Origin: a virus
Length of the DNA: 64,000 nt
Reading direction: 5' to 3' (one strand)
IMG/VR virus record: IMGVR_UViG_3300025669_000020
Coordinates: 41,614 to 105,613 of that record
The notes beneath the pieces were generated by a model. It ran no database searches. It saw only the letters and a program-made list of their open reading frames with translations, and was not told the origin of the DNA. The stretch's first letter is position 1, and every line of letters starts with the position of its first letter. Below, piece by piece: positions 6,693-64,000 of the stretch. Position numbers and translations under genes: made by a program.

Positions 6693-7176
6693 GGCTCGTG
6701 TAGAAGAGGGGGACCTGGGCGGGGTCTTGCAGGATGCACTCAAGGTGGGGAAGAACCACCCTGTTTTCATTCCTGCAATGGTCTATGCACGGGGGAACCG
6801 TAGAGTGGTCATTCACTTGATGGAGGGGTACGCATTTATAGCCAGTGGCCTCCCAGATGTGGAGTATTTCAAGCTGGAGCATCATTGCCCCCATGTGCGG
6901 CAAGTCCTCACTGTAGAAGACCCTCACAAGATGCGTGTCCTCAGTGTGGTTCCCAACTCCAGCATTCAGGATATGCGACGCAGCCTGCACGAGCAGATCG
7001 CGTCCGACATCAAGAGGGGGATGCACGTGAACATCACAGAGGGGCTCTACTCAGCTCTGGACGGCGAGGTTTTGGAGGTGGGCGAGCAAAACGCCCATGT
7101 CCGTATCACCCTTCGATCCTTGGATTTGATAGTGCGGATCCCAAGGGTGTTCTTGTCTCCGGAGGATCCAGAATGA
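6625..7176 (+). CDS. NusG/RfaH-like transcription elongation factor
   Basis: W-V-V N-terminus, VFIP, LMEGYAFI (NGN), C-terminal KOW V.ITEGLYSALDGEV. Confidence 0.75.
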   Translation: MPSNTDQRDEQTWVVLELTRTGEARVEEGDLGGVLQDALKVGKNHPVFIPAMVYARGNRRVVIHLMEGYAFIASGLPDVEYFKLEHHCPHVRQVLTVEDPHKMRVLSVVPNSSIQDMRRSLHEQIASDIKRGMHVNITEGLYSALDGEVLEVGEQNAHVRITLRSLDLIVRIPRVFLSPEDPE

Positions 7177-32914: not shown

Positions 32915-35900
32915 ATGCCCACTGTCGATAAAGTAGCTGCCCGTTGGCTGGAAGCGCGCCAGGATCCCCTGGACGAGAAGTACATCCAGAAGCTCCGCAA
33001 GGAGTTCCTGATGCTCCTTCGGAACGCGGACAGGGCCAAGACTTTCGACACCCCCACAGCGGAGAAGTACCGCAAGGCTGTGGTTCGGTGGCGGGAGATG
33101 TTCGAGCTTTATGGGGGGCAGATTCGGGAGGACCTGAAGGGTAGAGAGCGTGCAGCCAAGAGCGGTTATGGGAAGAACACCAAGGCCAATGAACAGTGGG
33201 CACATTGGTATCTGGAACACATGAAGCCTTTCTGGGAAATGCACTATGAGCTGGGTAATGTTCCCGCGGTGCCAGACCTGCGCGCTGGTACTTCAGGAGG
33301 GCCTTTCGAAGACCCCGAGGTGGTGGAGGCCCGGCTTGTAGATTTTTATGAGACGCGCTATCCAGAGAGGGATGCCAAGAGGGAGGTTGAGCGGTATCTC
33401 TGGAGTTCCCCGCTCTGGACACGGAAGCAGGCAGAGGCGGATTCTCTGGAGCGTTGGGCGGAAATCACTCGCAAGTGGGCTGCACGGGCTCGGAGCAAGG
33501 CTCGTGCAACGTGGAAGTATCTCACTGATCTGGGCAACTGGGCTGCAGAGTCCGGTGGGGGTGGGGAGGCCATTGCATTGACCACGACCCAGGATGAGAG
33601 GGTGAGCCTGGAAGGTTTCTCCCTGCTTTTCCGGGGGTTCGATGATGCTGGCTCGAACCAGGAGTATTTGGAGGCACTGAAGGCAGCCCTGGCCAAGTAC
33701 AAGCAGAAGGCACGTAAGCACCTGCCTCTTCTTCTGAAGAAACAACTCCCATTCGTGGTGAACTGGTCCTGGGCCAAAGACCATGGAAGCGCCGCCGCCA
33801 CCTACAACGGCGACCACATCGAGATCACTCCTTGGGGGTTGACTTCCAACACTGACAACATGGTGCGGACATTGGCTCATGAGATGGGCCACCACCTCTA
33901 CGACATCCTGGGTCGGGAGAAGCAGCACTTCTGGGAAAGTGCCCTCCGTGGGGACTACAAGAAGCTGGATTTGCGGCATGCAGTCAAGGTCATGAAGTCT
34001 GTGGGGGCTAGCACCACCATCAGTGACAAGCTGGCTCAGAAGGACCCCATCCTCTATCTGCAGTTGGGCACCCTCCTGAACCATCATGGCTACAAGGGTT
34101 TGGACTTGTTCGGGCTGAAATCCATTGAGGAGTATTTGGCAGATCCGGAGAACAGTCCCATTGTTATAGTGCCTGCCTCTCCAATCTCAGCGTATGCGGG
34201 AACGAGTGCCTCAGAGGCTTTCTGTGAGGCTGTCGGGCACCTGGTGGCCTACGGCAAGAACCGGCTGCCTGACAAGGTGTTGGGTTGGATGAAGATCATG
34301 CTTCCCCATGTGAAGTTCGGGGCAGAGCGGCTTGGCCCCAACACCCCGCTGATGGAACACGGCAAGGTCAAGGTCAAGTACCGGGTGAAGAGCAGTGGCA
34401 AGGGCGTCGCTGTGACGGTCTATTATGGCCGTGGGAAAATTGGTGGGATGAATGCTTTTGTCACCAAATACCCCGAACGGGATTACTGCGGAGATGACGT
34501 TTGGAAGCTCCTGAAGAAGTACCCACAGGTTGAGGACACCAGCCGTGGTAGGTGGACACCAAATGGCGGGGAAGAGCGCACCAACACGAGGGGTCTCCAA
34601 GTCTACAAGGCATTCCTCACCGATGAAAGCAAGCAGGGGTTGGGCATTGGCAGGGCGATGTACCTGGCGATGATGGCGGAGTGGTTCGATAAGGTTGGGC
34701 CCTTCCTGTTCATGCCTATGGTCTGTGGGTTGGGTACATCGGGGACATCTGCCGCAGCTTTCCGTGTGTGGAAGTCTCTGGCACGGGATTTCCCCTCCAG
34801 CGGCAATGTGATTGCAGTGCTTCGGCGTCCTCGGTTGCCTTCCCCCTCCAAGGTAGCACACAGGTTCATGGGAGATTCTTCTCTTCACCCTGTGAGGGGT
34901 ATCTCCACGCATGACGGGGACGGGCGTCCTCTGCGGCAGCCCTCTGGTTTGTTGCGTATGATGCCTGACTATGGAGAGGGCGGAGCCAATCTCCCTCGTG
35001 GGAATCCTGGTGAGGTCGAAGAGGTGTGCGAGGAACTGCAGGCTATGGGGATGCGGGTGGCAGCATATGATCTGATTACAGACCTCATGCCTAAAGAGAT
35101 GGACACATTCAGAATCGGACCTTTGCACATCAGTATTTCTCCTGGGTATGACAAGTTCCAACGCCTGTTCACCCGGCAGATGGCTGCTGCCCTCCAGCAG
35201 CACAAGAAGCTCCTCCCAGAAATGCAAATCCGAGCAGCAAATGTGGTGCTTGTACACTCCCGAGGTTGGGGTGAGGATCTGGCGGGCGACTATGACGACG
35301 GGACGATCCGGATCCTATTCAAGAACAGCCCTGCCGCTGTGGAGACCGCCTTGCACGAGATCGGGCATCAGCTGTGGGATCACAACAGTGGTTTGCGGAG
35401 CCAGTGGCGTATTTTTGACTCGGTTGCATGGGATACCAAGGGGTATCGGATCAATGCTGTAGCTTCGGAGAGCATGGAGGAGCACTTCTGCGAGGCATAC
35501 GCCCTTGTGGTGGGTGGTTCTCTCCGGGGTTGGCGGAAGGAGGCTATTCTGATGGCTATCGAAGGAAAGACCCACCCCAGGATGCAGGCATCCAGAGTGG
35601 CCACACGGTTGGCGGATCGGTTCCTCAGTGCAGCAGCCAAGTACCAGAAGAAGAAGGAAGTCCCCAAGGCTGATGGCAAGGGGACCATGACCGTCTACGA
35701 GTACAGCGACGGGCAGGTTCAGCACCGGAACCGGGAGAAGGCCGAGCGCGTAGAGAAACTACGGGGGAACCTCGACAAGCTCCGTGGCCAGGTGAAGAAA
35801 GACCTCAAGTCCAAGGACCCAAGCACAAGGCTCAGTGCTTTGGCTGTGGGGCTCATGAACGACACCTACGAGCGTGTAGGCAATGCAGGCTCCGCCAAGG

Positions 35901-37318
35901 AAGGACACTTCGGTGTCACCGTGTGGCAGGCCCAGCATGTAACCCTGGGCAAGGGGAAGGCCACCTTCAGCTATGTAGGCAAGAGCGGGGTCAAGCAGAA
36001 GAAGGTCACCTCCGACAAGGCTTTGATCTCTGTGCTGCGTGAAGCCATGAAGGGGAAGTCCGGTACGGATAATGTGTTCTCACTGGACGATGTTTCCGTG
36101 GGTGCTAGCGGGGTGAACGAGTACCTCAAGCAGTTCAACATCACCGCGAAGGACATCCGAGGGCTGCATGCCAACAGGGAGATGCAGACCCGGCTCAAGA
36201 GCGTTCGTTCCAAGGGCGGCAAGCTCCCAGCTGACAAGAAAAAGCGGGATGAGAAGCTCAAGGCGGAGTTCAAGAAGGCTCTGGAGGGAGCTGCAGAGGC
36301 TGTGGGCCATGAGCCCACTACCCTGAAGGGTCAGTACCTCGTGCCTGGGTTGGAGGACAGCTACATCAAGGACGGCACTGTGATGGACAAGCTGCACAAG
36401 AAGGCTCGTGTGGCACTTCCCCCAAGCAAGTGGGTGGATGCGGTGTCTACGGAGCTGGACAGGGCTCAGAAGGAACAGGTCTGGACCGTTTACCACATGA
36501 CCTATGCGACTATCGGAGAACACATTGGGAGCTTGGGGCAGCTCCTGTCCAAGTACAAGCTCCTGTGGTTGATGGATGTCGATGGTGACCAGGAGATCGA
36601 TGCCTTCATCGCCTACAAGAAGACTCCTTTTGGCTACAAGATCGCCCTGGGAGGAACAGACGGCACCAGGGCTGCTGTGAGGGCATTTGTGCGGAAGCAC
36701 CAAGAGTTGATGGTGCGTCCAGGGTGGTATGCAGAGGCATCCGGCAAGCCCGATAAGCTGATGTCCAAGATGGGCCTGCGCCCTCTGGAAGATGAGAGTG
36801 CTGTGCGTGGGGTACTGGTAGGCAAGGACATCGAGTGGGGGCAGGATGGTTGGTACACCCGAACCCTGGGTGGTCTTGGGAAGGTTAAGAAGCGGATGTA
36901 CGGACACCCCATAGTGAGGGGTCGTGCGCTCATGGCCTCCGATGTGGAGTGGGAAGACCTCACAGGGAGGACGCTTACGGGTGAGGTGGTAGACACGGAC
37001 TCCAACGTGTGGATCGTGGCAGATGCCACTGGCAGAGAGCATCACCTGGAAGATGGGTGGGACTTTGTGCGGAGGGTGGCAACCAAGACCCCCGCAGAGC
37101 GTGAGGATGCAGAGGTGGAGCGGCTCAGTCGCAAGGAGCCCAAAGTCAAACCTCCCCGCAAGGATCTCCGCAGGCAGCGTATGGAAGTGGATCAGGAAGA
37201 CGATCCCGACATGAAACAGGACAAAAAGAATCAGTCCCACAATTACAAGGACATAGGGGCAAGCGTGCTTTCTGTGCTGGAACGACAGTACAAATTCAGC
37301 GCCTGGACGGTATGGTAG
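32915..37318 (+). CDS. 1467-aa polyprotein: zincin, GNAT, zincin, DNA topoisomerase IB, further domains
   Basis: HEMGH..EAFCE; KQGLGIGRAMY; HEIGH..EHFCE; TopoIB ERVGN, YVGKSG, TAKDIRG, VGHEP..LKGQYL. Confidence 0.8.
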   Translation: MPTVDKVAARWLEARQDPLDEKYIQKLRKEFLMLLRNADRAKTFDTPTAEKYRKAVVRWREMFELYGGQIREDLKGRERAAKSGYGKNTKANEQWAHWYLEHMKPFWEMHYELGNVPAVPDLRAGTSGGPFEDPEVVEARLVDFYETRYPERDAKREVERYLWSSPLWTRKQAEADSLERWAEITRKWAARARSKARATWKYLTDLGNWAAESGGGGEAIALTTTQDERVSLEGFSLLFRGFDDAGSNQEYLEALKAALAKYKQKARKHLPLLLKKQLPFVVNWSWAKDHGSAAATYNGDHIEITPWGLTSNTDNMVRTLAHEMGHHLYDILGREKQHFWESALRGDYKKLDLRHAVKVMKSVGASTTISDKLAQKDPILYLQLGTLLNHHGYKGLDLFGLKSIEEYLADPENSPIVIVPASPISAYAGTSASEAFCEAVGHLVAYGKNRLPDKVLGWMKIMLPHVKFGAERLGPNTPLMEHGKVKVKYRVKSSGKGVAVTVYYGRGKIGGMNAFVTKYPERDYCGDDVWKLLKKYPQVEDTSRGRWTPNGGEERTNTRGLQVYKAFLTDESKQGLGIGRAMYLAMMAEWFDKVGPFLFMPMVCGLGTSGTSAAAFRVWKSLARDFPSSGNVIAVLRRPRLPSPSKVAHRFMGDSSLHPVRGISTHDGDGRPLRQPSGLLRMMPDYGEGGANLPRGNPGEVEEVCEELQAMGMRVAAYDLITDLMPKEMDTFRIGPLHISISPGYDKFQRLFTRQMAAALQQHKKLLPEMQIRAANVVLVHSRGWGEDLAGDYDDGTIRILFKNSPAAVETALHEIGHQLWDHNSGLRSQWRIFDSVAWDTKGYRINAVASESMEEHFCEAYALVVGGSLRGWRKEAILMAIEGKTHPRMQASRVATRLADRFLSAAAKYQKKKEVPKADGKGTMTVYEYSDGQVQHRNREKAERVEKLRGNLDKLRGQVKKDLKSKDPSTRLSALAVGLMNDTYERVGNAGSAKEGHFGVTVWQAQHVTLGKGKATFSYVGKSGVKQKKVTSDKALISVLREAMKGKSGTDNVFSLDDVSVGASGVNEYLKQFNITAKDIRGLHANREMQTRLKSVRSKGGKLPADKKKRDEKLKAEFKKALEGAAEAVGHEPTTLKGQYLVPGLEDSYIKDGTVMDKLHKKARVALPPSKWVDAVSTELDRAQKEQVWTVYHMTYATIGEHIGSLGQLLSKYKLLWLMDVDGDQEIDAFIAYKKTPFGYKIALGGTDGTRAAVRAFVRKHQELMVRPGWYAEASGKPDKLMSKMGLRPLEDESAVRGVLVGKDIEWGQDGWYTRTLGGLGKVKKRMYGHPIVRGRALMASDVEWEDLTGRTLTGEVVDTDSNVWIVADATGREHHLEDGWDFVRRVATKTPAEREDAEVERLSRKEPKVKPPRKDLRRQRMEVDQEDDPDMKQDKKNQSHNYKDIGASVLSVLERQYKFSAWTVW

Positions 37319-38206: not shown

Positions 38207-38788
38207 TTGACCCATTCCCGTACCGCCGTGAACTACCAGGAGCGTGCAGCTGAATTTGCTGTGGGTGAAGAGGTGGAGACCGTCAACGGTACGCATGGGC
38301 GCATTGTGGCCCTCTGGCCTGCCATTGGCATGGCTGATGTGGAGTTCCCCAACGGGAGCCGTCGTATCCCTGTAGAAGAGATGTACCGGGCTCCTGGTAG
38401 CTGGGTAGCCTCTCCCCAGGGCGAGACTGTTCCAGGGGGACTCCCCACCGTTTCTGTTCCTGGTGGCTCTGTCGCTCCTATCCCCCCTCCCGTCAAGAAG
38501 ACCGCTTCCCCACAGTCCCAAGAGCGCGTTGCTCGGGCTTTTGTGAAGAGGGCTCTCTACTGGGCAGGGAAGGACAGGCAGTACAGGGCTTCTGGTGATG
38601 AGGTCGATTCAGGACTCTACTGCTGCCCCAAGTGCAAGGCACGGGGGGAAGAAATCCCAATGAGACGTGCGATCTACAAGCGGCGCAATGGTTGTAGTGA
38701 TCGGCTCTTGGGATGTCCCTCCTGCATGTTCTTGATCAAGCGGTCGGATGTCCTGAATGACCCCACATACCAGGTAGAGGTTGTCTGA
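38207..38788 (+). CDS. Hypothetical virion protein with SH3-like and Zn-ribbon parts
   Basis: CPKC...CPSC; RVARAFVKRA tag. Confidence 0.6.
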   Translation: MTHSRTAVNYQERAAEFAVGEEVETVNGTHGRIVALWPAIGMADVEFPNGSRRIPVEEMYRAPGSWVASPQGETVPGGLPTVSVPGGSVAPIPPPVKKTASPQSQERVARAFVKRALYWAGKDRQYRASGDEVDSGLYCCPKCKARGEEIPMRRAIYKRRNGCSDRLLGCPSCMFLIKRSDVLNDPTYQVEVV

Positions 38789-40395
38789 TGGCGTTCCTTC
38801 GCACAGCCTCCGCCTTGGTAGTACAGCCATCCATCAGCCCCAAGGGCTGGGGGAGGGTTCGTACAGCTTCCAAGGTAGAGGGAGCACCCTCCAAGAATCT
38901 GTCGGCACAAGCCAGCGAGATTCTCGGCACAGATTTTGACCCGTCCAAGTACCTGCTGACCCATTGCACCATCGTCGCCTCCGTGAATGTCGAGTCTGTC
39001 CCCAACGTGAAGTTGGGTTCTCTCACAGAGGATGGTCACAAGGTCAACCGCAAGTACGTTGACTACCGTGTCAGCTCCGACACGGACAAGTACATCAACA
39101 ACAACCTGGACTGCTTCGGGCGGGACGTGCTGCTGGACAGCTACTCCACGTTCATCGGGGCACAGAACTATCAGGAACATGTTCAGGTCGAAGCCATGTC
39201 CAAGGGCCGCATCATCGATGCCGTAGCCCGTGACATTGGCGACTCCATCTATGTCGATATCCTGGTGGCCACGGATCGGAAGCATACCGAGCTGGTCAAG
39301 GATATCGAAGCAGGCAAACTCGGCACACTCTCCATGGGTTGCAGTGTAGATGAGACCATCTGCACCAAGTGCGGCAACGTCGCCGTGGACGAGACCGAGC
39401 TTTGCCATCATGTCCGCTACGAGAAGGGCAACATCTTCTATGACGACAAGGGGCATCAGCACCGTGTCGCGGAGCTGTGCGGACACCCCTCTATCGAGCC
39501 CCATGGTGGAGTGACCTTCATCGAGGCTTCCTGGGTTGCAGCACCCGCTTTCACTGGCGCGGTCTTGCGGAACATCATCCACCCCGGCGATCTGACAGAC
39601 AAGCAGGCTTCCCGAATCCAGGAAATCCTGAACACCCCTCCCTGTGACTGGACTGACAGCTGTGGTATCGCCAAGGCTGCCTCCGAGACCACGAGTGAGC
39701 GGGTTGTCGGCAAGGTCGCAAATCCTGCTGTTCAACACACCCTGGTCCTTGACCCCCATCGTCAGGCAGGCACCCCCGTGGATGCTTTCAACTTCGATGA
39801 GCCGGGCGGTGACGAAGGCGGCGGTGACGAAGGCGGCGGTGAAGAGGCTGAGAAGCCCAAGGAAGAGAGCCCTCTGCACCAACTAGAGGATGATGTCCTC
39901 CATGAGGTAGTGGACAGGGTCAAGACCCGTGTCCGTGAGGACTTGGAGCGGGACAAGGATAAGGATGCCCCTGTAGTGGCTCCCACCTTTGCTCCTAACG
40001 ATACTCTCATCAAGGAAGCTCGTAAGAAAGCAGCACGCTCTTTGCAGCGTGTCCGTGTTGCGGCAGCCAAGCAAGCCTACAGGCAGGCATATTGGGCAGC
40101 CACAGCTACGTTGACGAAGACTGCTACTTCCGATGCAGACCTTGTGAACAGTGTGGCAGTACTGGACGGCAACTTTGGGATTAACGTCCCTGTGGATGTC
40201 TACCAGGCAGCCCTTTCGGTCGGTTCTGCCGATAACTACCCTACTGTGGGGAAATTCCTGACCGCGTGTAAGAGCACGGTGAGGCGTCCTATCAGTCTCC
40301 AGGATGCCAAGGCGTTCATCCGCCTCGGTAAAATCCTATCCCACGCGGAGGCAGTTTCCTCCGTTTGCCTACCCCCAAAAAGCAGGAGTGTGTGA
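38788..40395 (+). CDS. Prohead maturation protease (HK97/assemblin-like with Zn finger)
   Basis: NYQEH, GRIIDA, TLSMGC..CTKCG..C.H, FIEASWVAAPAF; upstream of scaffold and MCP. Confidence 0.7.
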   Translation: MAFLRTASALVVQPSISPKGWGRVRTASKVEGAPSKNLSAQASEILGTDFDPSKYLLTHCTIVASVNVESVPNVKLGSLTEDGHKVNRKYVDYRVSSDTDKYINNNLDCFGRDVLLDSYSTFIGAQNYQEHVQVEAMSKGRIIDAVARDIGDSIYVDILVATDRKHTELVKDIEAGKLGTLSMGCSVDETICTKCGNVAVDETELCHHVRYEKGNIFYDDKGHQHRVAELCGHPSIEPHGGVTFIEASWVAAPAFTGAVLRNIIHPGDLTDKQASRIQEILNTPPCDWTDSCGIAKAASETTSERVVGKVANPAVQHTLVLDPHRQAGTPVDAFNFDEPGGDEGGGDEGGGEEAEKPKEESPLHQLEDDVLHEVVDRVKTRVREDLERDKDKDAPVVAPTFAPNDTLIKEARKKAARSLQRVRVAAAKQAYRQAYWAATATLTKTATSDADLVNSVAVLDGNFGINVPVDVYQAALSVGSADNYPTVGKFLTACKSTVRRPISLQDAKAFIRLGKILSHAEAVSSVCLPPKSRSV

Positions 40396-42473: not shown

Positions 42474-43349
42474 ATGAGCAACGTATCCAACGCTGCAAAG
42501 CAGCAGATCATCTCCGAGTTCATCAAGACCCCCCAGGGTCGCGCTAAGCTCGCAGCCTCGATGACCCAGCCTCTGCGCCTCCGCCGGGACTACACCGCAG
42601 TCGGTCGTAAGACCTTCCTCGTGGAACAGCTCCCTGACGGCGCACTGCCCATCTACGACAAGGACCCCGATGTGACGGCATACGTCGTTGGTGAAGAAGG
42701 CGAGAACATCCTCGCAGTCACCAAGCCTCGCCGTGTCATCTTCCCCCTCTTCGAGATCGCATCCAACCCCGAGATCCCGCTCACGCAGATCAAGGAACGT
42801 CGGTTCGACCTCATCGAGCGCGCCCAGGACTTGGCCCGTGCCCAGATCCAGGCAGCAGAAGACGAGCGTGTCTTCGCAGTGCTCGACAGCATCGCCACCA
42901 ACGGCTTCGACTCCGTGGCTGGCGGCACCAACCCTGACATCCCCGTGGTCGCTCCGATCTCTGGTGCTGTCCTGGCTGATGCCTTCGCACTGATCGAGCG
43001 TCATGACCTTCATGTCGCTCGCGTGTTCATGAACGCTCGGGACTACGCGGACCTCCGCAAGTTCGGTCGCGACATCCTGGACATCGAATCCCAGCGCGAT
43101 TTGTTGAAGACCGGCCTGATGGCAACCCTCTGGGGAGCACAGATCATCGTCAGCCGCCTCGTGCCTGTCGGAACGGTCTATGTGTGTTGCGAACCGGAAA
43201 TGTTCGGCCGCATCCCCGTTCGCATTGAGCTGACAGTTCTCAGCGCAGACGACCCGAAGGCTCGCACCATCGGCTTCTCCTGCTTCGAGAACCTCGGTAT
43301 CGGCGCGTTCAACCCCCGTGGTCTGACCCGTCTGACGATCACCCGTTAG
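42474..43349 (+). CDS. Major capsid protein (HK97 fold)
   Basis: Position; LPIYDKD, FEIASNPEI, RRFDLIERAQ..A.IQAAED, LWGAQIIVS..VP.GTVY. Confidence 0.85.
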   Translation: MSNVSNAAKQQIISEFIKTPQGRAKLAASMTQPLRLRRDYTAVGRKTFLVEQLPDGALPIYDKDPDVTAYVVGEEGENILAVTKPRRVIFPLFEIASNPEIPLTQIKERRFDLIERAQDLARAQIQAAEDERVFAVLDSIATNGFDSVAGGTNPDIPVVAPISGAVLADAFALIERHDLHVARVFMNARDYADLRKFGRDILDIESQRDLLKTGLMATLWGAQIIVSRLVPVGTVYVCCEPEMFGRIPVRIELTVLSADDPKARTIGFSCFENLGIGAFNPRGLTRLTITR

Positions 43350-43374
43350 TCATAGTAGAACCTCGGTTCTCAAC

Positions 43375-43402
43375 GAGCCCTCGGCCTTCGGGTCGGGGGT
43401 TC
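43375..43402 (+). terminator. Hairpin terminator after MCP
   Basis: GAGCCCTCGGCC-TTCG-GGTCGGGGGTTC. Confidence 0.6.
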
Positions 43403-43481
43403 TGTGCATTCGGGGGTTGCTGTCGTGCCCTCTCTTCCTTTGCTCTTGCTTTATTTTCTTTGCCTTGTGTCCTGAACCCTG

Positions 43482-43510
43482 TTGAAAACCTGTTGGCTTG
43501 TAGGTATAGT
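43482..43510 (+). promoter_or_regulatory. Sigma70-type promoter
   Basis: TTGAAA-N17-TATAGT. Confidence 0.65.
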
Positions 43511-43544
43511 AGGTTACCCCTAAACACCGACAAGGCTAAAGGTT

Positions 43545-44696
43545 ATGGCATCTGACAAAACAAACACACCTAAAGTATATGGGGCTTTCCGCAGGGTGGT
43601 CACACCAGAGGTCTTGCGAAAGCTGTATTTGGAGCAGAATGATGCCGAGATCGCTGCCCTCTATGGTGTCTCAGATGCCCTGGTCTCCCGGTACAGAAAG
43701 CAGTGGGGGATCCAAACACTGAATCCCAGACAACGAAGGGACCAAGTACGGGAAGCACAGGGTTTGCCCACAATTGAGGATCTGACACCTGTGGTCCTTG
43801 CAGACATCTATTCCAGAATGGGGGATGCCCAGATCGGGAAGATGTATGGGGTGAGCAAGCCTGTGATCGTGAGGTTGCGGCAGAGGTGGGGTATCCACAC
43901 CTTGACCAAAACACAGAGGGCTACACAGGAGGGGCCTTTGTCAGAGGGGCAGCAGGAGACATTGATAGGTGTTCTGCTCGGGGATGGACATGTCACAGCA
44001 CGGGGCTCTTTTCAGGTGGGGCACTCCCATTCCCAGGTGGGGTACGTCCACCATCTGTATGACCTGTGGGCTCCTTTGAGCAGGCCTGTTCAGTTTGGGG
44101 AGAAGATCATGGACAGCGGCACTGTGGCGTACACGTTCCTTCTGCGGACAGCACCACACAAATGGCTCCAGTACCTTCGCAAGCTGTTTTATCCACAGGG
44201 AGTCAAGGTCTTCCCAGAGAGCATCCTGACACACCTGAGTGCCCGGTCCTTGGCCTACTGGTACTTTGATGATGGCCACTTGGATTCAGGGTTGCCTTCA
44301 ATTGCACTGGGGGACATCACGGTAGCCGCTGCCGATGATGTGGCACGGCGGGTAGGGAAGCGGTTTGGGTTGGATGCCTACATCCGCCCACAGTCCACAG
44401 AGACCTGTAAAATCCTCGGGGTGCGAGCTGGGAGTACGGATCTGTTCTTTTCCCTTGTCCGCTCTTACCTGATCCCCGAGATGGCCCACAAGTACCCTGC
44501 CAAACAGCGTCCCGTGGGCACTGTTCCTGTACGCCCCCGCTTGACATTGGAACCTGTGAAGATGCCCCTAGACCTGACAACACGCTCCAAAGAATGGGGG
44601 CATCTGGGAGAAGAGGGGCAGGAGCATCTGTTGGATGATCTGGTGGCTTTCTGGCACCAGCAAGGGTTTCCGTACCGTTTAACAAAACTTAGGTGA
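43545..44696 (+). CDS. HTH x2 + LAGLIDADG homing-endonuclease-like protein, C-terminus cut by IS607
   Basis: Two D..I...YGVS...V...R..WGI repeats; LIGVLLGDGH and LAYWYFDDGH; last codons come from the IS end. Confidence 0.75.
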   Translation: MASDKTNTPKVYGAFRRVVTPEVLRKLYLEQNDAEIAALYGVSDALVSRYRKQWGIQTLNPRQRRDQVREAQGLPTIEDLTPVVLADIYSRMGDAQIGKMYGVSKPVIVRLRQRWGIHTLTKTQRATQEGPLSEGQQETLIGVLLGDGHVTARGSFQVGHSHSQVGYVHHLYDLWAPLSRPVQFGEKIMDSGTVAYTFLLRTAPHKWLQYLRKLFYPQGVKVFPESILTHLSARSLAYWYFDDGHLDSGLPSIALGDITVAAADDVARRVGKRFGLDAYIRPQSTETCKILGVRAGSTDLFFSLVRSYLIPEMAHKYPAKQRPVGTVPVRPRLTLEPVKMPLDLTTRSKEWGHLGEEGQEHLLDDLVAFWHQQGFPYRLTKLR

Positions 44697-45990
44697 TCCT
44701 ATGCTCTGTTACCGTCTCTTGCGAGATCGGCCCCCGGTCTGACTCTCCCCGAAGGGAAATGCCGGGTTCCTGCTTCACCGAGGTCTGCCTCCGTATCGCA
44801 AGCGATACGGAAGGTCTCACGTCCTCTCCACAGGCGTTTTTAGTGAGGTCCGACGAACTGGCGGCCCTCAAGATGTTGATCGCAGCATTGAGGTCAGCAT
44901 TGGCCTCGTGCCCGCAAGACAAGCAGCAGAACTCGCTCTGCGAAGTCCGATTGTCCTTCTCGACGTGCCCACACGCTGAACACCGCTGGCTGGTGTAGTG
45001 GGGTGGAACAGCCACGACTTCACAGCCGTAGAGTTTCCCTTTGTACTCCAACAACCTACGGAACTCCCCGAAGGCGGCATCCAGCACGACCCGGTTGAGG
45101 CCACGTTTTCGCGAGCCTCCCCCAGCCGTCATGTTCCGCACCTTCAAGTCCTCGATCACAACCTTGCCGTGGCTTTTGGCAAGCATAGTCGTGGCCTTGT
45201 GGAGTACATCACGTCGAACATTCCGAACCCGAGCATGGGCACGGGCGAGCTTCGCCCTAGCCTTGCCCCGGTTCTTCGACCCCCTCTTCTTTCTGCTCAC
45301 CTCCTGTTGAAGCCTCTTGATCTTCTTTTGCCCTTTCTGGAGGGCTCTCGGATTCTCGATGACCGTCCCGTCCGACAAGGCAGCCAACCGAGCCACGCCG
45401 AGATCCAGTCCCACAGGGGGGTTCCCGTTCGGCACTGCCGCTCCCACAACTTCGGGCCCGACGACGGAAACGAACCATCGTCCTGCCTTCTCGGTCACAG
45501 AGACCTGAGCATGCTTCCCCCATGGGAGGTAGCCACGCTCTCCCGGCTGGAACTTCACCTTCCCGATGACTGGGAGCTGGACGGTCCTGTGATCAACCTT
45601 GATGGTGCCGGTCAGGCGGAACCCGCCGACGCCCCTGCTCCTCGACTTGAACCTTGGGTACTTGGCTCGTCCTGACAGGAAGTTCTTGAAGGCCCGGTCG
45701 AGATCACGAAGGGCTTCCTGCGGTGCCGCTTTGCTAGCCTCGTACATCCAAGGGATGCCGCCCTCTTCGGGGCTGGCTTTCTTCAAGACGTTGAGGTCGC
45801 GGTGGAGAGAGATGGCGTTCAGCCATCCTTTCCACTTCTTCGGCTTGCCCTCAGTCACCCATTGCTCGTAGGCGTCCCGATGCTGACGGAGCCCCCAGTT
45901 ATACGCCCACCGAGCGTTGCCCGCATGTTGGAGAAGGGCCTGCCTCTGGCGAGGAGTCGGCCTGATCTCCGCTCGGTAGGCGAGCCTCAC
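44689..45990 (-). CDS. tnpB: TnpB RNA-guided endonuclease
   Basis: AYRAEIRP..Q...HAG.ARWAYNWGL, RuvC VGLDLG, VVIEDL, TSQRCSACG, DLNAAINI; GTG overlaps tnpA stop. Confidence 0.92.
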   Translation of the reverse strand: MRLAYRAEIRPTPRQRQALLQHAGNARWAYNWGLRQHRDAYEQWVTEGKPKKWKGWLNAISLHRDLNVLKKASPEEGGIPWMYEASKAAPQEALRDLDRAFKNFLSGRAKYPRFKSRSRGVGGFRLTGTIKVDHRTVQLPVIGKVKFQPGERGYLPWGKHAQVSVTEKAGRWFVSVVGPEVVGAAVPNGNPPVGLDLGVARLAALSDGTVIENPRALQKGQKKIKRLQQEVSRKKRGSKNRGKARAKLARAHARVRNVRRDVLHKATTMLAKSHGKVVIEDLKVRNMTAGGGSRKRGLNRVVLDAAFGEFRRLLEYKGKLYGCEVVAVPPHYTSQRCSACGHVEKDNRTSQSEFCCLSCGHEANADLNAAINILRAASSSDLTKNACGEDVRPSVSLAIRRQTSVKQEPGISLRGESDRGPISQETVTEHRIT

Positions 45991-46628
45991 TGGTCGGCCT
46001 CGACTTCTGCCTTCGCTCGTTTCCGGTTTTCGGCTGAGCGTCGCCCGTAGATACGAGCGGAGAACGATGCCATCAGCGAGAGGATGTCTTCGACAAGCTC
46101 CTCCTGATAGGACTTCCCGAGAGTCTCCTGTACCCACTCGATCTCGACGCCGTGGCTGTCGAAGTAGGCCGCGAGGAGGCCACCTCCGAACCGGGAAAGC
46201 CGATCTTTGTGTTCGACCACCACCCGGTCGATCTTGTGTTCGTTGACGAGCTTGAACAGCTTGCGGAGTCGAGGGCGGTTCTCCGACATGCCCGAGCCCA
46301 CGTCTTCCAGGACGGCGACCAGCTTGTAGCCTTGTTTGACACAGTGGGTCGTGACCCGCCCGACCTGACGTTCTAAATCGCCTTTCTTCTTTTGGTCGTG
46401 GCTGCTCACCCGACAGTAGATGGCGGCACGAACCTCGGTGGCTCCTTCCCCTGACACGTCTTGCCCTTGTAGAGCCTCGATGACCGAGAGCTTGTAGCGA
46501 CGGTGGTTCCCAAGAGTTCGTTCGGCCACTAGGCGGCCTTCCTCGTCCCAACGACGTAAGGTGTCGGGATGGACACCGAGCATCTCTGCTGCGGCACGGA
46601 CACGGAGGAGTCGGTCAGCCTTCGGCAT
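45987..46628 (-). CDS. tnpA: IS607 serine recombinase TnpA
   Basis: MerR-like HTH (LGVHPDTLRRWD), YCRVSS, DVGSG, HKDRLSRFG, ELVED..SFSARIYGRRS. Confidence 0.92.
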   Translation of the reverse strand: MPKADRLLRVRAAAEMLGVHPDTLRRWDEEGRLVAERTLGNHRRYKLSVIEALQGQDVSGEGATEVRAAIYCRVSSHDQKKKGDLERQVGRVTTHCVKQGYKLVAVLEDVGSGMSENRPRLRKLFKLVNEHKIDRVVVEHKDRLSRFGGGLLAAYFDSHGVEIEWVQETLGKSYQEELVEDILSLMASFSARIYGRRSAENRKRAKAEVEADQ

Positions 46629-58435: not shown

Positions 58436-59329
58436 ATGGCCGTAGCATTCAACCCAGGCGATACCACCTCTCGTGGAGACCTGGATCTGTTTTTGACGAC
58501 CTCCGGGGGTGCCCCCGCCAATGCCTACTCCATCTCCTATGCCATCTACTATGTAGACCCAGGCACAGGAGCAGAGACGCTCATTGGCTCCGCCACCCGG
58601 ACTCCAGTGAACCCCGCTGTGGGTGAGTATTATGCGGCCCTCACTGTCCCCACCTCCGCAACAGTGGGCACATACCGCATCCGGTGGACGTTCAGGGAAA
58701 CCTCCACGTCCACAGCTCAAACGGTGGTCATGGAGTGGGCAGTGGTATCCGTCTCAGGGGAGACAGCTACGACCTACACCCTCTACCAGCAGTCCATGAT
58801 CGATAAGCTGCGGATCCTTTTAAGAGACCAGAACCCTGACAAATTTTATAGATTCAGACCACCTGAGCATGAGGGCACCATCGGGTGCTTCAACCAGGTG
58901 TTCGGCTATATCTGGGAGGATGCAGAGCTGTTGGAGTACCTGGAACGGGCCTTGGACTGGTGGAACATGTTCCCACCCGAGACCGAATCCCTCTGCACCA
59001 TCGACAAGCTCGTCAGCATGAAACCAGCATGGAGAACCGCTATCCTCTGGGGTGCCATGATCCATGCCCTCATGGCTCTGGCAATTAATTGGACATCTGA
59101 GGAATTTGACTACTCCATCGGAGGCATCTCACTCTCCATCGACAAGTCCTCCAAGTACGAATCCCTCAAGCAGAATGCCGAAGGACAATTTGATAAGGCA
59201 ACAGATGCTAAGCACCGAACCACTAAGTTTTCGCGTGGCCTCCAGCAACCGCGCTATGGTATAGGCGTCAGAAGTTCCTTCGGGCCGCATGTGGGCAAAG
59301 GTGTGCTTTCACCGCGTAATTTCAGTTGA
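58436..59329 (+). CDS. Head-tail connector/neck-like virion protein with N-terminal Ig-like domain
   Basis: VGEYYA...GTYRIRW; EFDYSIGGISLSIDKSSKY. Confidence 0.55.
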   Translation: MAVAFNPGDTTSRGDLDLFLTTSGGAPANAYSISYAIYYVDPGTGAETLIGSATRTPVNPAVGEYYAALTVPTSATVGTYRIRWTFRETSTSTAQTVVMEWAVVSVSGETATTYTLYQQSMIDKLRILLRDQNPDKFYRFRPPEHEGTIGCFNQVFGYIWEDAELLEYLERALDWWNMFPPETESLCTIDKLVSMKPAWRTAILWGAMIHALMALAINWTSEEFDYSIGGISLSIDKSSKYESLKQNAEGQFDKATDAKHRTTKFSRGLQQPRYGIGVRSSFGPHVGKGVLSPRNFS

Positions 59330-59385: not shown

Positions 59386-60223
59386 ATGGCTATATGCCCT
59401 CCATTGTGGACGTGAATTCAAAGGTTCCCGAGTCAACGCCCGCCATCTGGCGAAATGTAATCCCTCGGCGTCACCCCCGGTGCCACCTTGTCTTTGTGGG
59501 CATGAATCCACCAGTTTGACACAGATGAAGCGTCATCGGCGTACATGTGCGGTGTGGCAGAACCGGGACAGGAACGCAGTGAAAGTGGCAAGGCAACGAG
59601 CCACAAACTTGGAACGGCATGGGGTAGAGAATGCCGCGTGGGCTCCTGAGGTGGCTGCGCGTCGCCAGGAGACGGTACGAGAGAAGTACGGGGTGGAGAA
59701 CCTGTTCCAGTCCGAGTCCATTAAGGCCAAGTCCAGGGCTACAATGCGTGAACAGCATGGGGTGGAGCACAACAGCCAGGTGCCTGCGTTTGCAGAGAAG
59801 CGTCGCCAGACCAACCTGGAACGTCGTGGTGTGGAGAACCCCTTTGCCTCTCCGGAGGTACAGGAGAAAATCCGCAGCACGATGCAAGAGCGGTATGGAA
59901 CAGTGCGTCCTCAACAGGTGCCCGAGATCAGGGCTCGTACCAAAGCTACCTGTGAAGAGCGGTACGGGGGACAGTTGCTGGCTTCACCTCAGATACGGGC
60001 AAAGGCTGAGGCCACGAATCTGGCACGGTATGGAGCTGCTTTTGCAGGTGGGACGCCTGAGGTGCAGGCCAAGATCATCCAAACGAACATGGAGCGGTAT
60101 GGGGTTCCTCATACCTGCATGGACCCGGAGATTCGTCGGAAACAGTTAGAAACGATGGAGGCGCACTACGGTTCTCATTGCCTCCACTGGGGTCCTGGCC
60201 TCACCCCTTTGGACTACCTGTAG
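59386..60223 (+). pseudogene. Zn-finger + (T.LERYGVEN)n repeat protein, homing-endonuclease-associated type; extra base near 59400; C-terminus replaced by array unit
   Basis: MAICP/HCGREF..RHLAKC across frameshift; ~9 YG/HG repeats; ends GPGLTPLDYL. Confidence 0.6.
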
Positions 60224-61221
60224 AGGGTCACACCCCAGCCCGGATCGCGTAGAGGGTTGATGCACCCCCTGAGCCCTCTGGACTACCTGCAATGATCCCT
60301 CTCCCTCCCTACATGTATGGGCAGAAATCCAAGACCCTGGATACGCTGTCGGTGTCGGTGTCAGAATCGGCGTCCGCATCGCTGTCCGTGTCGTGGTCGT
60401 TGTCGGCGTGGTCGCTGTCGGAGTCCATCTTGTGGAGAGGGCATTCTCGAACACGGCACGGTCCCCACGGCGGTCCTCCCCTGCAGCCTCTGGACTACAT
60501 CTGATGATCCCTCTCCCTCCGATTTTCTGGGATGGCCAGAGATCCGAGACTCAAAACAAAACGGAGTCGGTATTGGCGATGTGGTCGGGGTCAAGGTCGA
60601 AGTTGGTGTCATGGTCGGTGTTGTCGTCAGGGACGTTATTGGGGGGGACTGGGTCATGGTCGGGGTCGGGATCGCGATTGACAGTGGGGTCGGTGTCGCT
60701 GCTGTGGCATTCCGAGACTGGGCATGGTCCTGAAAGTGGTCCTGGCCTAAGTCCTCTGGACTACCTGCGATGATCCCTCTCCCTCCCTGCAGATATGGGC
60801 AGAAATCCAAGACCCAGGCTCAGACTGTTTCGGTGTCCGTGTTGGGGTGGTGGTCGCGGTCGGTGTCGTTGTCGCGGTCGCTGTCCGTGTCGCTGTCCGT
60901 GTCGTCGTCGTGGTCGTGGTGTTCCACCTGTGGGCATGGTCCTAAAGAAGGTCCTGGTCTCACTCCTTTGGACTACCTTCGATGATCCCTCTTCCTCCCT
61001 ACAGATATGGGCAGAAATCCATGACCCAAGACAAGAGGGTCTCGATGGCGGTGTCGTGGTCGGGGTTGAAGTGGGGATCGTTCTCGTGGTCAAGAGTGCT
61101 GTCGTTGTCGATGGCGGTGTCGTGGTCGGTGTATTCTCAAGCAGGTCATGGTCCTGAAGGGGGTCATCCCCTGAGCCCGCTGGACTACTTGGGGGGTTGT
61201 ACTCCTGCTCGGATCGCATAG
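60184..61221 (+). repeat. Tandem array of Ser-X micro-ORFs (60292-60504, 60504-60773, 60770-60985, 60982-61221) plus remnants
   Basis: Conserved junction TGGACTAC.TGATCCCTCT.CCTCC; degenerate 6-bp GTCGNN core. Confidence 0.85.
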
Positions 61222-61235
61222 TGGGGTAGAGCACC

Positions 61236-61670
61236 GTGCCGGTGCCTGGAGGTGTGCTGATGTCTTTCGAGCATGTGGAGTACAAGACCGCTCGTGCTTT
61301 TTGGGAAGCTCACAAGGTGCTGGTGGCTGAGGGGTGCTCCTTGGCGGTGCTGACCCTCCCCCTATCCAGAACCGTTGGTTTCGTGGAGCAGGAGCGCCGG
61401 AGATACCACAGCATTGGGGTGTCCAAGTACAAGGCCACGAACGGACAGTACCTCCCTGGTGGGTGGGGGTTGCTGGCGAACTCGGTGGGTCCTGGGGATG
61501 CGGGGTTGTCGGACACCCTGGGCTGTCCTGTGATGCGATCAGGGGCTTTGCACCGACAGCAGCAGGTTCTGGAGTGGGAGCCCCAGGATTTGAGGAAGTT
61601 GCGAACTCTGATTGATGAGGCGCTCAAGGATCCAGACTGCAGCATCGTCATTTCGCCTGCCGCCGAGTAG
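61236..61670 (+). CDS. Hypothetical protein
   Basis: GGAGGT RBS before internal ATG (~61260). Confidence 0.5.
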   Translation: MPVPGGVLMSFEHVEYKTARAFWEAHKVLVAEGCSLAVLTLPLSRTVGFVEQERRRYHSIGVSKYKATNGQYLPGGWGLLANSVGPGDAGLSDTLGCPVMRSGALHRQQQVLEWEPQDLRKLRTLIDEALKDPDCSIVISPAAE

Positions 61671-61681
61671 CTGCCATGCTG

Positions 61682-61712
61682 TGGTAGCTTGTCTATAGCC
61701 GGGCTCAGGTAG
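61682..61712 (+). promoter_or_regulatory. Putative phage late promoter motif
   Basis: TGGT-agcttgt-CTAT-N12-GTAG. Confidence 0.65.
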
Positions 61713-61731
61713 CAACCTACAGGAGTCCCAA

Positions 61732-62382
61732 ATGAACGCACGCCGGAACCGCAAGCCCGTTCAGGATCACCGTCGCCATCCCGCCTTCATCCGTGTCCTT
61801 GACGGGTTGGAGGATGTGGCTTCCGGGATCCGTGTTCTGAAGGTTCAGTACGAGCAAACGCCAGAGTACGATGGGGGCACCTACGTTGAGGTGTACGACT
61901 CCAACGATGATCTCCTGGATGACAGCTATGGGAAGCACAACGACCTCCGCAAGGCATTGGCAGAGGCTTTGGAGGATTTTGGAGAGGACTACAGCCATAA
62001 CGCCTCCCTCCGCAAGAGGGCCATCAAGCTGGCTCACGTCAATCCTGTGCTGCGCCCTCACCTGCTCCCTCTCTTGAAGGAAGCATACGGAAGGGATGTT
62101 GCGGGGAAGCACCTGATCTTCAGCCCCAATGACCCCCCTTTCAGCTTCCGCGAAGTCGCGCAGGATGCCCATGGGCAGGTGTATGACGCCGCGATCCTGA
62201 TGGACAAGCGTCGCACTGTCGTCCAGGCAGTTGCACAGGTTTGGCGGAAGTACCAGCGCGAGTTGGTGGGGATGAGGAAGCGCTACGAGGCTATCAAATT
62301 CATCGAGGCGAAGATCCCCGAGTTCGCCAGCCGTCCCATCAAGGGCTACATCAAGTGGCACATGTACTCGATGCCTGATTAG
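61732..62382 (+). CDS. Putative internal head protein with internal LIRLA-type tag
   Basis: SLRKRAIKLAHVNPVLRPHLLPLLKEA between two domains. Confidence 0.65.
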   Translation: MNARRNRKPVQDHRRHPAFIRVLDGLEDVASGIRVLKVQYEQTPEYDGGTYVEVYDSNDDLLDDSYGKHNDLRKALAEALEDFGEDYSHNASLRKRAIKLAHVNPVLRPHLLPLLKEAYGRDVAGKHLIFSPNDPPFSFREVAQDAHGQVYDAAILMDKRRTVVQAVAQVWRKYQRELVGMRKRYEAIKFIEAKIPEFASRPIKGYIKWHMYSMPD

Positions 62383-62681
62383 CGCCTGCGCTGATCCCTG
62401 TGTTGATCCCTGCGCTGAGTCCAGTGTCCTGACACCCAATGGCCCCTGTGGTCACGGCGTCCCTGCACCCAGGTATGCCCCGCACGCTGCTGGGTGGCTT
62501 GCCAGTGCCCAGGGATCATCCGACCCTTGTGGTCCCTGTGGCGGGGAACCCATGCCCATCCCTGCTGCTGTTGCCGCTGGTGGTGAACCTGGGGCCTTGG
62601 GGGAGGCCCGAAGTGGATGATGATGTCTGCCTGTGCGGGGGAAGAGAGCAGGGTGAGAGCAAGGGCCAGGGTAGTGAGCAT
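62379..62681 (-). CDS. Secreted YXWGXW-repeat-like protein
   Basis: Signal peptide ..PAQA/D; WVP..RD..G..IPGHW and WVQG.RD..G.WVSGHW repeats. Confidence 0.7.
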   Translation of the reverse strand: MLTTLALALTLLSSPAQADIIIHFGPPPRPQVHHQRQQQQGWAWVPRHRDHKGRMIPGHWQATQQRAGHTWVQGRRDHRGHWVSGHWTQRRDQHRDQRRR

Positions 62682-62930
62682 GATTCTTTGACCTCCGGTT
62701 ACACGTTGACGGGGTGGCCCACCTGCTCATTCAGCGTTTCCCTCGGTAGAGTGTCCCGATACGAGGAGGCCCCAACCATGTCCAACCCAGAAACCGTCCT
62801 GATCAATCATGACGGGTATCTGTTTCAAGACCCCGGCAACCTCCAGCCTTTGGAGGGTGACCTCAGTGCTGACACCAAGCTGGAAGAAAGCCTTCCTCTC
62901 TGAACTCCCCCCACGGCAAGGAGATGCCCC

Positions 62931-63143
62931 ATGGAAACCAACGCCAACCCCTGGACTGACAACAAGGATTGGGCTGAGAAGTGTGACGAGCTTCGCAAGC
63001 AGATCATCTACAAGGCTCTGAAGCATGCAGAGCATTCCACTACTGCGAATGCACCCGACAAGGCCCAGCACTACCTTGAGGTGGTGCGTATGGCTACCGA
63101 GACCCCTTCCTTCGATGCACTGCTCGCGGTGGCATCCCGGTGA
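62931..63143 (+). CDS. Hypothetical protein
   Basis: AAGGAG RBS. Confidence 0.5.
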   Translation: METNANPWTDNKDWAEKCDELRKQIIYKALKHAEHSTTANAPDKAQHYLEVVRMATETPSFDALLAVASR

Positions 63144-63559
63144 GAGAAATGACAGCCCTTGAATCCTACATAGAGCTGTTGAGGGAGATCCTTCAGTACA
63201 GGTGGTCAGTCGAGCCCGAGAAGGTGGATGTACACAGAAGGGCGCTTAGAGAGCTGGCGATGTGCCCCGTCTCCGATGCCCTGGATGCGTACATGAAAAT
63301 CGCGGTGCTGTATCTCCGGGCTATGAGGGAGAGGGAGAGGCGGGAGCCTGACATCTATGCAGGCTGCACGAGCCCTGTGTGGGAAGGGTGGAATGCAGAA
63401 GAGGACGCATGGCTCCTGCAAATGGAAGTGGCACACGAGAAACTGTCCGAGTCCGAGAAAAGATGGGCGGAGCGCCGTTTCAATGAATTCGACCACACCA
63501 GGGCGATGGACAAGGCTATGAAGTCCATACATCAGGAGAAGGTCGATGAAACTGCGTGA
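63140..63559 (+). CDS. Hypothetical protein
   Basis: Overlapping operon packing. Confidence 0.5.
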   Translation: MREMTALESYIELLREILQYRWSVEPEKVDVHRRALRELAMCPVSDALDAYMKIAVLYLRAMRERERREPDIYAGCTSPVWEGWNAEEDAWLLQMEVAHEKLSESEKRWAERRFNEFDHTRAMDKAMKSIHQEKVDETA

Positions 63560-63854
63560 CCTGTTCACGGGTGATCCCGTCAGGAATCCCGAGCTTCAGG
63601 ACCTTGTCAACCCCGAGAACCCTGAGCCCCTCCAGCCTCGCAATGAGGCTGAGGACAAGGTTCGTGCCTGCCTCCCCGGGGATGATGTGACTCAGCACCC
63701 CCTCTACCAGGAGTCCAACCCCTATCTCACGAACCCCTTCACGATGGGGACGATGGAGAAGATGCGGCAGCTCCGAGCGGGCACCTTGCAGGTGAGCCGG
63801 GAGGAAGAGCAACAAATCCGTGCAGCATGGTCAATTCTGAATGGGGCGGGGTAG
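63546..63854 (+). CDS. Hypothetical protein
   Basis: AGGAG RBS. Confidence 0.5.
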   Translation: MKLRDLFTGDPVRNPELQDLVNPENPEPLQPRNEAEDKVRACLPGDDVTQHPLYQESNPYLTNPFTMGTMEKMRQLRAGTLQVSREEEQQIRAAWSILNGAG

Positions 63855-63872
63855 GGGTTGTAGGAGGTGCTC

Positions 63873-64000
63873 ATGGAAGAGATCGTCGAATCCCGCAAGA
63901 CATCATTGGAAGACCTGGCAGAGAGGGTTCTACGGGCCTATCTGGATCGCATGGTGTCGGTCTGCAACAAGATGTGTGCTGATGACATGAAGAAGTACAT
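63873..64000 (+). CDS. Hypothetical protein, 3'-truncated by window
   Basis: AGGAGG RBS, open to window end. Confidence 0.45.
   Translation, partial: MEEIVESRKTSLEDLAERVLRAYLDRMVSVCNKMCADDMKKY

Follow-up and report, generated by a model that had tools for sequence, protein, structure and literature searches.

A tandem array of putative micro-genes with conserved ends and repeat-rich variable cores in a huge-phage genome fragment

Results

Layout of the array

The DNA analysed here, referred to as the window, is a stretch of 64,000 nucleotides comprising bases 41614-105613 of the viral record IMGVR_UViG_3300025669_000020. The record is 105.6 kb long and was estimated by CheckV to be 23% complete, which implies a phage of several hundred kb. 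Towards the right end of the window lie four ORFs of 70-89 aa on the + strand, linked by two ATGA overlaps and one TGATG overlap and headed by an ORF of 11 codons, itself overlapping the first of the four by ATGA. This chain had been noticed in an earlier reading made from the letters of the window (the sequence-only reading), and all of its members were found again where that reading had placed them. The features of the array and its surroundings are as follows.

38788-40395: head-maturation-protease-like gene, upstream of the array
42474-43349: major head protein gene, upstream of the array
43545-44696: LAGLIDADG endonuclease, directly after the major head protein gene
44689-46551, minus strand: TnpB-like transposase
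58436-59329: connector-like ORF, 297 aa, with a weak head-tail connector likeness (phrog_17327, E 1.4e-4)
59480-60223, + strand: remnant of a DUF7487 homing endonuclease, 247 aa (Pfam 2.3e-36; phrog_3339 1.6e-28)
60224-60259, + strand: array-end segment, homologous to 61191-61236 after unit 4 (81% mean column identity in a pairwise alignment)
60260-60295, + strand: starter ORF, 11 codons, ending in ATGA on the start of unit 1
60292-60504, + strand: unit 1, 70 aa; core at ~60340-60450, a VNTR of 18/36-nt units
60504-60773, + strand: unit 2, 89 aa; TGATG overlap with unit 1; core at ~60552-60716
60770-60985, + strand: unit 3, 71 aa; ATGA overlap; core at ~60818-60928
60982-61221, + strand: unit 4, 79 aa, the last in the chain; ATGA overlap; nine extra tail codons leading to TAG

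In each of the four units a Ser-X core is flanked by a 16-residue leader and a 17-residue tail, and the alignments bore out the common leader and tail with a variable core between them that the sequence-only reading had described. The units are spaced by 212, 266 and 212 nt. At the junction of units 1 and 2 (TGATG), the CGA codon that usually precedes the stop is replaced by TGA. A Shine-Dalgarno-like run, GAGGG, is located 3-4 nt before the ATG at 60260, within the segment 60224-60259. A scan for promoters and terminators gave nothing above the chance level, and no tRNA genes were found within the window.

The cores contain tandem repeats with periods of 6, 12, 15 and 18 as found by TRF, which are short repeats lying inside ORFs, as in VNTR loci. 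The S-x-S motif occurred 11 times in the core of unit 1 versus 3.1 times in residue shuffles of the same core, and 7 versus 2.8, 10 versus 3.5 and 5 versus 2.2 times in units 2, 3 and 4, an excess of 2.3 to 3.5 times with p from <0.0002 to 0.036. The core hexamer with a fixed Ser codon, earlier written as TCG+NNG, is more exactly TCG+NKG, with X mainly TGG, GTG, AGG, GGG, ATG or TTG.

The left end of the array and the genomic setting

The left end of the array holds two features that had previously been missed. The last ~17 codons of the 247-aa DUF7487 ORF (from ~60170, with the shared tail sequence at 60191-60220) are the tail of a fifth micro-gene, called unit 0 here, and the 36 nt that follow are homologous to the sequence downstream of unit 4. 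The presence of this tail together with the homologous post-array segment means that the window holds two abutting arrays. The first is reduced to a tail fused in frame to the endonuclease remnant, and the second consists of four units headed by the relic of a unit tail (the 11 codons at 60260-60295), which now acts as the starter ORF. The 247-aa ORF aligns only to residues ~110-330 of a 477-aa DUF7487 protein encoded in the uncultured phage LR745208.1 (L005, 6600-8033), where that gene has the same position, after the connector-like gene. The ORF in the window is devoid of the C-terminal nuclease domain and carries the micro-gene tail in its place. An intact unit 0 of 94 aa with the same tail was found in contig L024, which is 100% identical to the window from 60170 to 62805 and looks like an allele without the DUF7487 endonuclease. 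After 62805 this contig jumps to 63902-64000; the resulting 1.1-kb indel (62806-63901) between near-identical phages removes several small ORFs, including 63140-63559 and 63546-63854.

Within this huge-phage fragment the array belongs to the late/head region or adjoins it, with several selfish elements around. Of the deposited phages only LR745208.1 (485 kb) gave a match, and only over the 297-aa connector-like ORF. The LR745208.1 homologue of this ORF (L005, 5578-6471) has an unrelated N-terminal part of ~130 residues, which by eye is Hint/intein-like. The head module itself (42474-46551) is crowded with selfish elements.

Several further observations were made on other genes. Downstream of it, a 216-aa ORF (61732-62382) carries the motif L-R-x-x-x-I-[KR]-L-A-H-x-x-P-x-L-R-P-x-L-L-P-L-L, which is also present in two ORFs of LR745208.1 (L005, 8639-9337 and 9351-9710), and a weak homologue follows the array in L008/L043 (L008, ~6848-7090). 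This ORF family seems to belong to the phage backbone and not to be specific to the arrays. A 1467-aa ORF (32915-37318) includes the catalytic core of a eukaryotic-type topoisomerase IB in residues 936-1138 (Pfam 3e-26). Outside the window, record bases 6562-6900 lie in a 639-aa minus-strand open frame and gave a sub-threshold Pkinase match (E 2e-4, 16.7 bits). A candidate phage Ser/Thr kinase encoded alongside Ser-rich micro-proteins is only a lead.

Coding frame and conservation of the overlaps

The coding frame was assessed with 72 non-redundant units extracted from metagenome relatives and the window. Over the 17 codons of the tail, the entropy sums were 17.6, 13.0 and 23.1 at codon positions 1, 2 and 3, and in the leader 13.0, 12.6 and 16.2, which is the same trend in a weaker form. 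Conserved Gly, Leu and Pro residues of the tail are encoded by 3-6 synonymous codons, and conserved Ser residues by both TCN and AGY. The start/stop overlap was kept in all 69 distinct junctions (ATGA in 54 and GTGA in 15), as would be expected if the ORFs are translationally coupled, as had been proposed for the window. Unit spacings in the family vary from 209 to 281 nt and are all -1 mod 3, so that changes in length always comprise whole codons. Together, the variation at third positions, the kept overlaps, the spacing and the switching of frame by minus-strand ORFs from unit to unit fix the frame as +, and the + strand micro-genes are very probably real.

The junctions also appear to be constrained as nucleotides. 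Their invariant elements are TGGAYTAY, a T four bases before the start, and NTGA. The Leu or Met codon before Asp always ends in G, as seen in 48 of 48 Leu codons versus 38% at the other conserved Leu column, which indicates a constraint at the nucleotide level on top of that at the protein level. The invariant G before GAC could have a role in ribosome binding, or could instead reflect toggling between Leu and Met. The overlapping start codon also determines which residue closes a unit, either Leu (CTA or CTG) or Arg (CGA). No consensus RNA structure was obtained by RNAalifold for the 69 junctions, and there was no match in Rfam.

Distribution of the family

Scanning of JGI metagenome contigs with a degenerate pattern of the tail gave 41 loci, of which ~27 were true relatives and 14 were chance matches. 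The sequence-only reading had proposed such a search with the constant ends as a check, and the ~27 contigs contained arrays of up to 10-11 consecutive units with varying cores. Contig L045 carries 10 complete units in 3 kb, and L010 and L013 have 7-8; overall the unit number per contig was from 1 to at least 10, and the products were 64-104 aa long. A profile search (full HMMER) of 1.84 billion protein representatives produced 37 matches, all of them small metagenomic ORFs or over-extended ORF calls except for one unrelated 306-aa repetitive protein. No fused form of the micro-protein appeared in a search for longer proteins. One of the relatives (P0008) is encoded on a contig of 114 kb and another (P0039) on a contig of 530 kb.

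Viral contigs, searched with the protein profile and two DNA patterns, gave no relative beyond the window's own record; the single match, L056, was rejected as a chance match in an HTH protein. A pattern scan of 185,579 species-representative genomes gave 9 single chance matches within long unrelated ORFs and no family member. No unit was found in the related 485-kb LR745208.1 by a search that recovers all units in the window's record. The units had no match in Pfam, PHROGs or NCBIfam, including any curated family of RiPP precursors, and nothing relevant was found in the literature on the tail motif or on huge phages with tandem small hypervariable proteins. The micro-gene family is real and undescribed, and has been seen only in a few uncultured phages.

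In another phage, represented by L006, L008 and L016 (98-kb contig), a chain of at least nine units is preceded by genes for an AAA ATPase and a DUF2201 metallopeptidase/VWA protein. It begins with a unit coupled by ATGA to the stop of the VWA gene, and isolated units are located a few kb upstream. In one unit of L006 (11980-12254) the leader and the tail are in different frames, which could be explained either by a frameshifted pseudogene or by a sequencing error. No homologue of the AAA ATPase and DUF2201/VWA genes was found in the window's record, so the link to these neighbours is not general. The neighbourhoods of the arrays differ between contigs and no neighbour is common to all arrays, with the caution that most related contigs are short assemblies of short reads, in which differences in unit order and flanks could partly be chimeras at repeats. 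Given the differing neighbourhoods and the absence of units from LR745208.1, the array is probably an accessory module.

Variation of the core

The cores of the family consist of 26% Ser, 10% Gly, 9% Arg and 7% Trp, and the residues most often seen as X in S-X-S are Trp, Gly, Arg, Val, Leu and Met, with the codons TGG, GGG, AGG, GTG, TTG and ATG. In many family members the core is complex and free of repeats, and Ser can make up as little as 10% of it. The codons of the core (TCG, AGG, GTG, TGG) are atypical: Ser is encoded by TCG in 45% of cases and Arg mostly by AGG, versus 10% TCG and 15% AGG in 12 ordinary genes of the window. Where Ser is conserved in the leader and the tail, it is encoded by TCC, the usual codon. 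The sequence-only reading had expected the frame and the Ser periodicity to persist in homologues; the frame and the overlaps did so in full, and the enrichment in Ser was kept in most units but not in all.

The variability of the core between constant ends, also part of that reading, was seen directly as in-frame differences between near-identical contigs. Unit 1 has 70 aa in the window and in L024, 76 aa in P0004 and 88 aa in L029, and a variant of unit 4 (P0003) was found in another assembly. A 54-nt block of repeat copies is all that separates the window from L029 over 2.6 kb. Between L012 and L044 the ends are identical, and the cores differ by 9 substitutions of X codons and two 6-nt indels. 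Between otherwise identical contigs, the cores differ by copies of 18/36-nt repeats. The copy number of the repeats thus differs between near-identical genomes, as it does in VNTR loci. On/off phase switching by frameshifting repeats was not found, all length changes being multiples of 3. Among pairs of orthologous units in different contigs, 51 of 56 had identical cores, which shows that change is episodic and not rampant.

The atypical codons and the differences in repeat copies between contigs indicate that the cores arise by slippage, for which the near-identical contigs are direct evidence. Judged by these features, the core looks like recently expanded repeat DNA (TCG-NKG, often in 18/36-nt super-units) and not like long-selected coding sequence. 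The Ser-X pattern likewise looks like a by-product of hexamer slippage; what the family conserves is the two ends instead.

Predicted properties of the proteins

AlphaFold2, run with an alignment of 61 sequences, gave a pLDDT of 60 and a pTM of 0.12 with no secondary structure. The models of the ESM Atlas had a pLDDT of 0.48 for a Ser-X unit and 0.35 for a unit with a complex core; searching the Atlas by feature and by structure yielded no usable result. Since no fold was predicted, the micro-proteins are probably disordered. A sequence profile search of the PDB gave only a compositional match, to the RS domain of SRSF1 (E 0.3). The mean net charge of the units is +3.3; Cys is frequent just before the tail, and Tyr-Gly occurs in the leader. 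The motif [RK]V[AG]x[RMLK][FYWH][LMIV], a candidate capsid-targeting tag, has 11 sites on the + strand of the window, between 10060 and 55309, and the candidate tag in the form [RK]VAxR[FWH]L was absent from all 70 units examined.

Discussion

The reading that we favour, to which we assign a probability of roughly 0.55, is that the locus is a + strand operon of real micro-genes forming an accessory module, whose products are disordered and have conserved docking ends and a middle varied by slippage. As suggested by the conserved overlaps, a terminating ribosome would re-initiate on the spot at the overlapping ATG or GTG start. The TGGA located 10-13 nt upstream of the start (GGA at 10-12 nt), within the Leu/Met-Asp codons, may act as a weak Shine-Dalgarno sequence, and the chain in the window would be primed by the 11-codon ORF with its own GAGGG. 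The predicted products carry a leader that follows the pattern M-I-P-L-P-P-Y-R-Y-G-Q-K-S and a tail that closes with P-L-D-Y-L, both under purifying selection, and between them a low-complexity middle rich in Ser, Gly, Arg and Trp. The TCG-NKG middle would expand, contract and reshuffle in frame via replication slippage and unequal recombination, and recombination at the constant junction of ~100 nt probably alters the number of units. The two ends may be docking motifs for a conserved partner of the phage or the host, with the middle serving as a tolerant, fast-changing spacer or as a variable surface. The array would then be an accessory module for interaction with the host or the virion, and neither a RiPP cluster nor a DGR target.

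Parts of this arrangement recall known systems. Mycoplasma Vlp/Vsa are size-variable lipoproteins encoded by genes of the VNTR/contingency type. As in those genes, in-frame tandem DNA repeats give length polymorphism between near-identical genomes; unlike them, the micro-proteins have neither a signal peptide nor a lipobox, do not undergo on/off frameshifting, and are encoded in separate coupled cistrons of a phage. T-even phages have hyperplastic internal-protein loci, whose products carry a short, conserved, capsid-targeting N-terminus. These too are small accessory genes that evolve fast, lie close to head genes and encode a short conserved motif at the N-terminus. However, there is no homology to them, the array adds a conserved C-terminal motif, no protease site was identified in the units, and the candidate tag is absent. 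Multi-copy sets of RiPP precursors, such as the prochlorosin ProcA, cyanobactin PatE and fungal MSDIN sets, have constant recognition ends and hypervariable cores. The array resembles them in its short products, many paralogues, conserved termini and a core free to vary, and differs from them in that no tailoring enzyme or protease was found with it, the leader is only ~16 aa long, the cores are 30-70 aa of low complexity made by slippage, and the genes are translationally coupled and in a phage.

The likeness to RiPP sets raises the possibility, also put forward in the sequence-only reading, that the units are RiPP-like precursors whose ends are recognized by an enzyme or protease encoded elsewhere and whose Ser/Trp-rich core forms the product after modification. 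This idea is in keeping with the constant ends, the hypervariable core, the many copies and the shortness of the presumed precursors; the Cys before the tail and the Tyr-Gly of the leader could be modification sites, and the record represents only 23% of the genome. Searches of the 105-kb record for Radical_SAM, YcaO and Peptidase_S9 found no such gene, in agreement with the earlier statement that no modifying enzyme is seen nearby; LanC is outside these negatives, since the LANC_like search was silent in every control genome. Neither did the flanking genes supply a tailoring enzyme: the neighbours in the window, L006, L008 and L021 are a homing endonuclease, an AAA ATPase, DUF2201/VWA and genes of unknown function, and they are not common to the contigs. 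Known RiPP cores, furthermore, do not resemble these stretches of 30-70 low-complexity residues with their slippage-type codons, and neither Pfam nor NCBIfam holds a matching precursor family. Precursors of this kind are accordingly an improbable explanation. Hypermutation of the cores by a DGR or another targeted mutator is far less probable again. Its footprint would be the X codons, which vary at positions 1-2 and have G at position 3, so that the opposite strand (NNC-GAC) recalls the codon design of DGRs; as in DGR variable regions, every second codon varies chiefly at its first two bases. No reverse transcriptase was found in the record, which is part of an incomplete genome, by a PF00078 search that gave signals in the controls, and no template repeat of equal length and differing at adenines was found. 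In contrast to DGR variable regions, the variants differ in length, by steps of 6, 18 and 54 nt; most orthologous cores are stable, and NNG would permit TAG stops. With neither a reverse transcriptase nor a radical-SAM, YcaO or S9-peptidase gene in the record, both the RiPP and the DGR readings are unsupported.

The properties of the core could also point to self-associating peptides, either amphipathic beta-strands or amyloid, or condensates of Trp/Arg stickers with Ser/Gly spacers, in the cell or in the capsid. The alternation of Ser with Trp, Arg, Val, Leu, Met or Gly, the positive net charge and the predicted disorder are consistent with this, as is the weak likeness to the RS domain of SRSF1, in which Ser likewise alternates with Arg or aromatic residues in a disordered chain of the sticker-spacer type. 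This likeness is compositional only, though, and the units, at 70-90 aa, belong to a bacterial virus and have no RNA-binding domain. The beta-strand or amyloid-like peptides suggested from the sequence found no echo in the AlphaFold2 model, which contains no strands; many family members are devoid of Ser-X, and the conserved parts are the ends and not the core. The decoys or inhibitors of host-defence sensors named as examples in the sequence-only reading likewise found no support. We consider self-association rather unlikely, and to much the same degree we doubt that the array is a decaying or selfish tandem duplication, with ORFs translated only through coupling and contributing nothing to the phage. 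The region is indeed rich in selfish elements (the DUF7487 remnant, the LAGLIDADG gene and the TnpB-like transposase), one unit was truncated by fusion with the homing endonuclease and one unit of L006 is frameshifted, and the related huge phage LR745208.1 is free of arrays. On the other hand, purifying selection is evident on both ends and every overlap is kept, across units that are 27-62% identical to the first aligned unit. It is, finally, very improbable that the + strand is not coding at all, and that the array is a non-coding DNA or RNA repeat or that Thr/Pro-rich ORFs on the minus strand are the genes. A series of minus-strand ORFs of 102-174 aa does run through the region, and stops are scarce in several frames. 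With a unit length of 3n+2 nt, however, the minus-strand ORFs change frame from unit to unit and cannot give a conserved product; the 3-periodic conservation fits only the + frame, and neither a consensus RNA structure nor an Rfam match was found.

A broader view, which we regard as unlikely, is that huge phages carry a self-renewing library of disordered micro-proteins. In such a library the constant handles would dock to one conserved partner, be it a virion component, a host machine or a tailoring enzyme encoded in trans, and slippage would renew the surfaces, made of Trp, Arg and hydrophobic residues on serine. If this were true, it would amount to a diversification driven by DNA repeats, for interaction with the host or for counter-defence, that works without a reverse transcriptase.

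Almost all knowledge of huge phages comes from metagenomes, and the majority of their small genes lack an annotation. The micro-genes described here form a clear-cut new family of small proteins, for whose translation the evolutionary evidence is strong, and their architecture is unusual, with chains of up to 10 or more cistrons joined through overlapping stop and start codons and a middle that visibly varies between co-occurring strains through repeat slippage. Even if the array is selfish or neutral, it still shows repeat expansion creating coding sequence in phage genomes. If the two ends are docking motifs, the array would represent a simple, enzyme-free way for a virus to diversify its protein repertoire, and it would serve as a convenient model in which to study translational coupling and how disordered proteins evolve.
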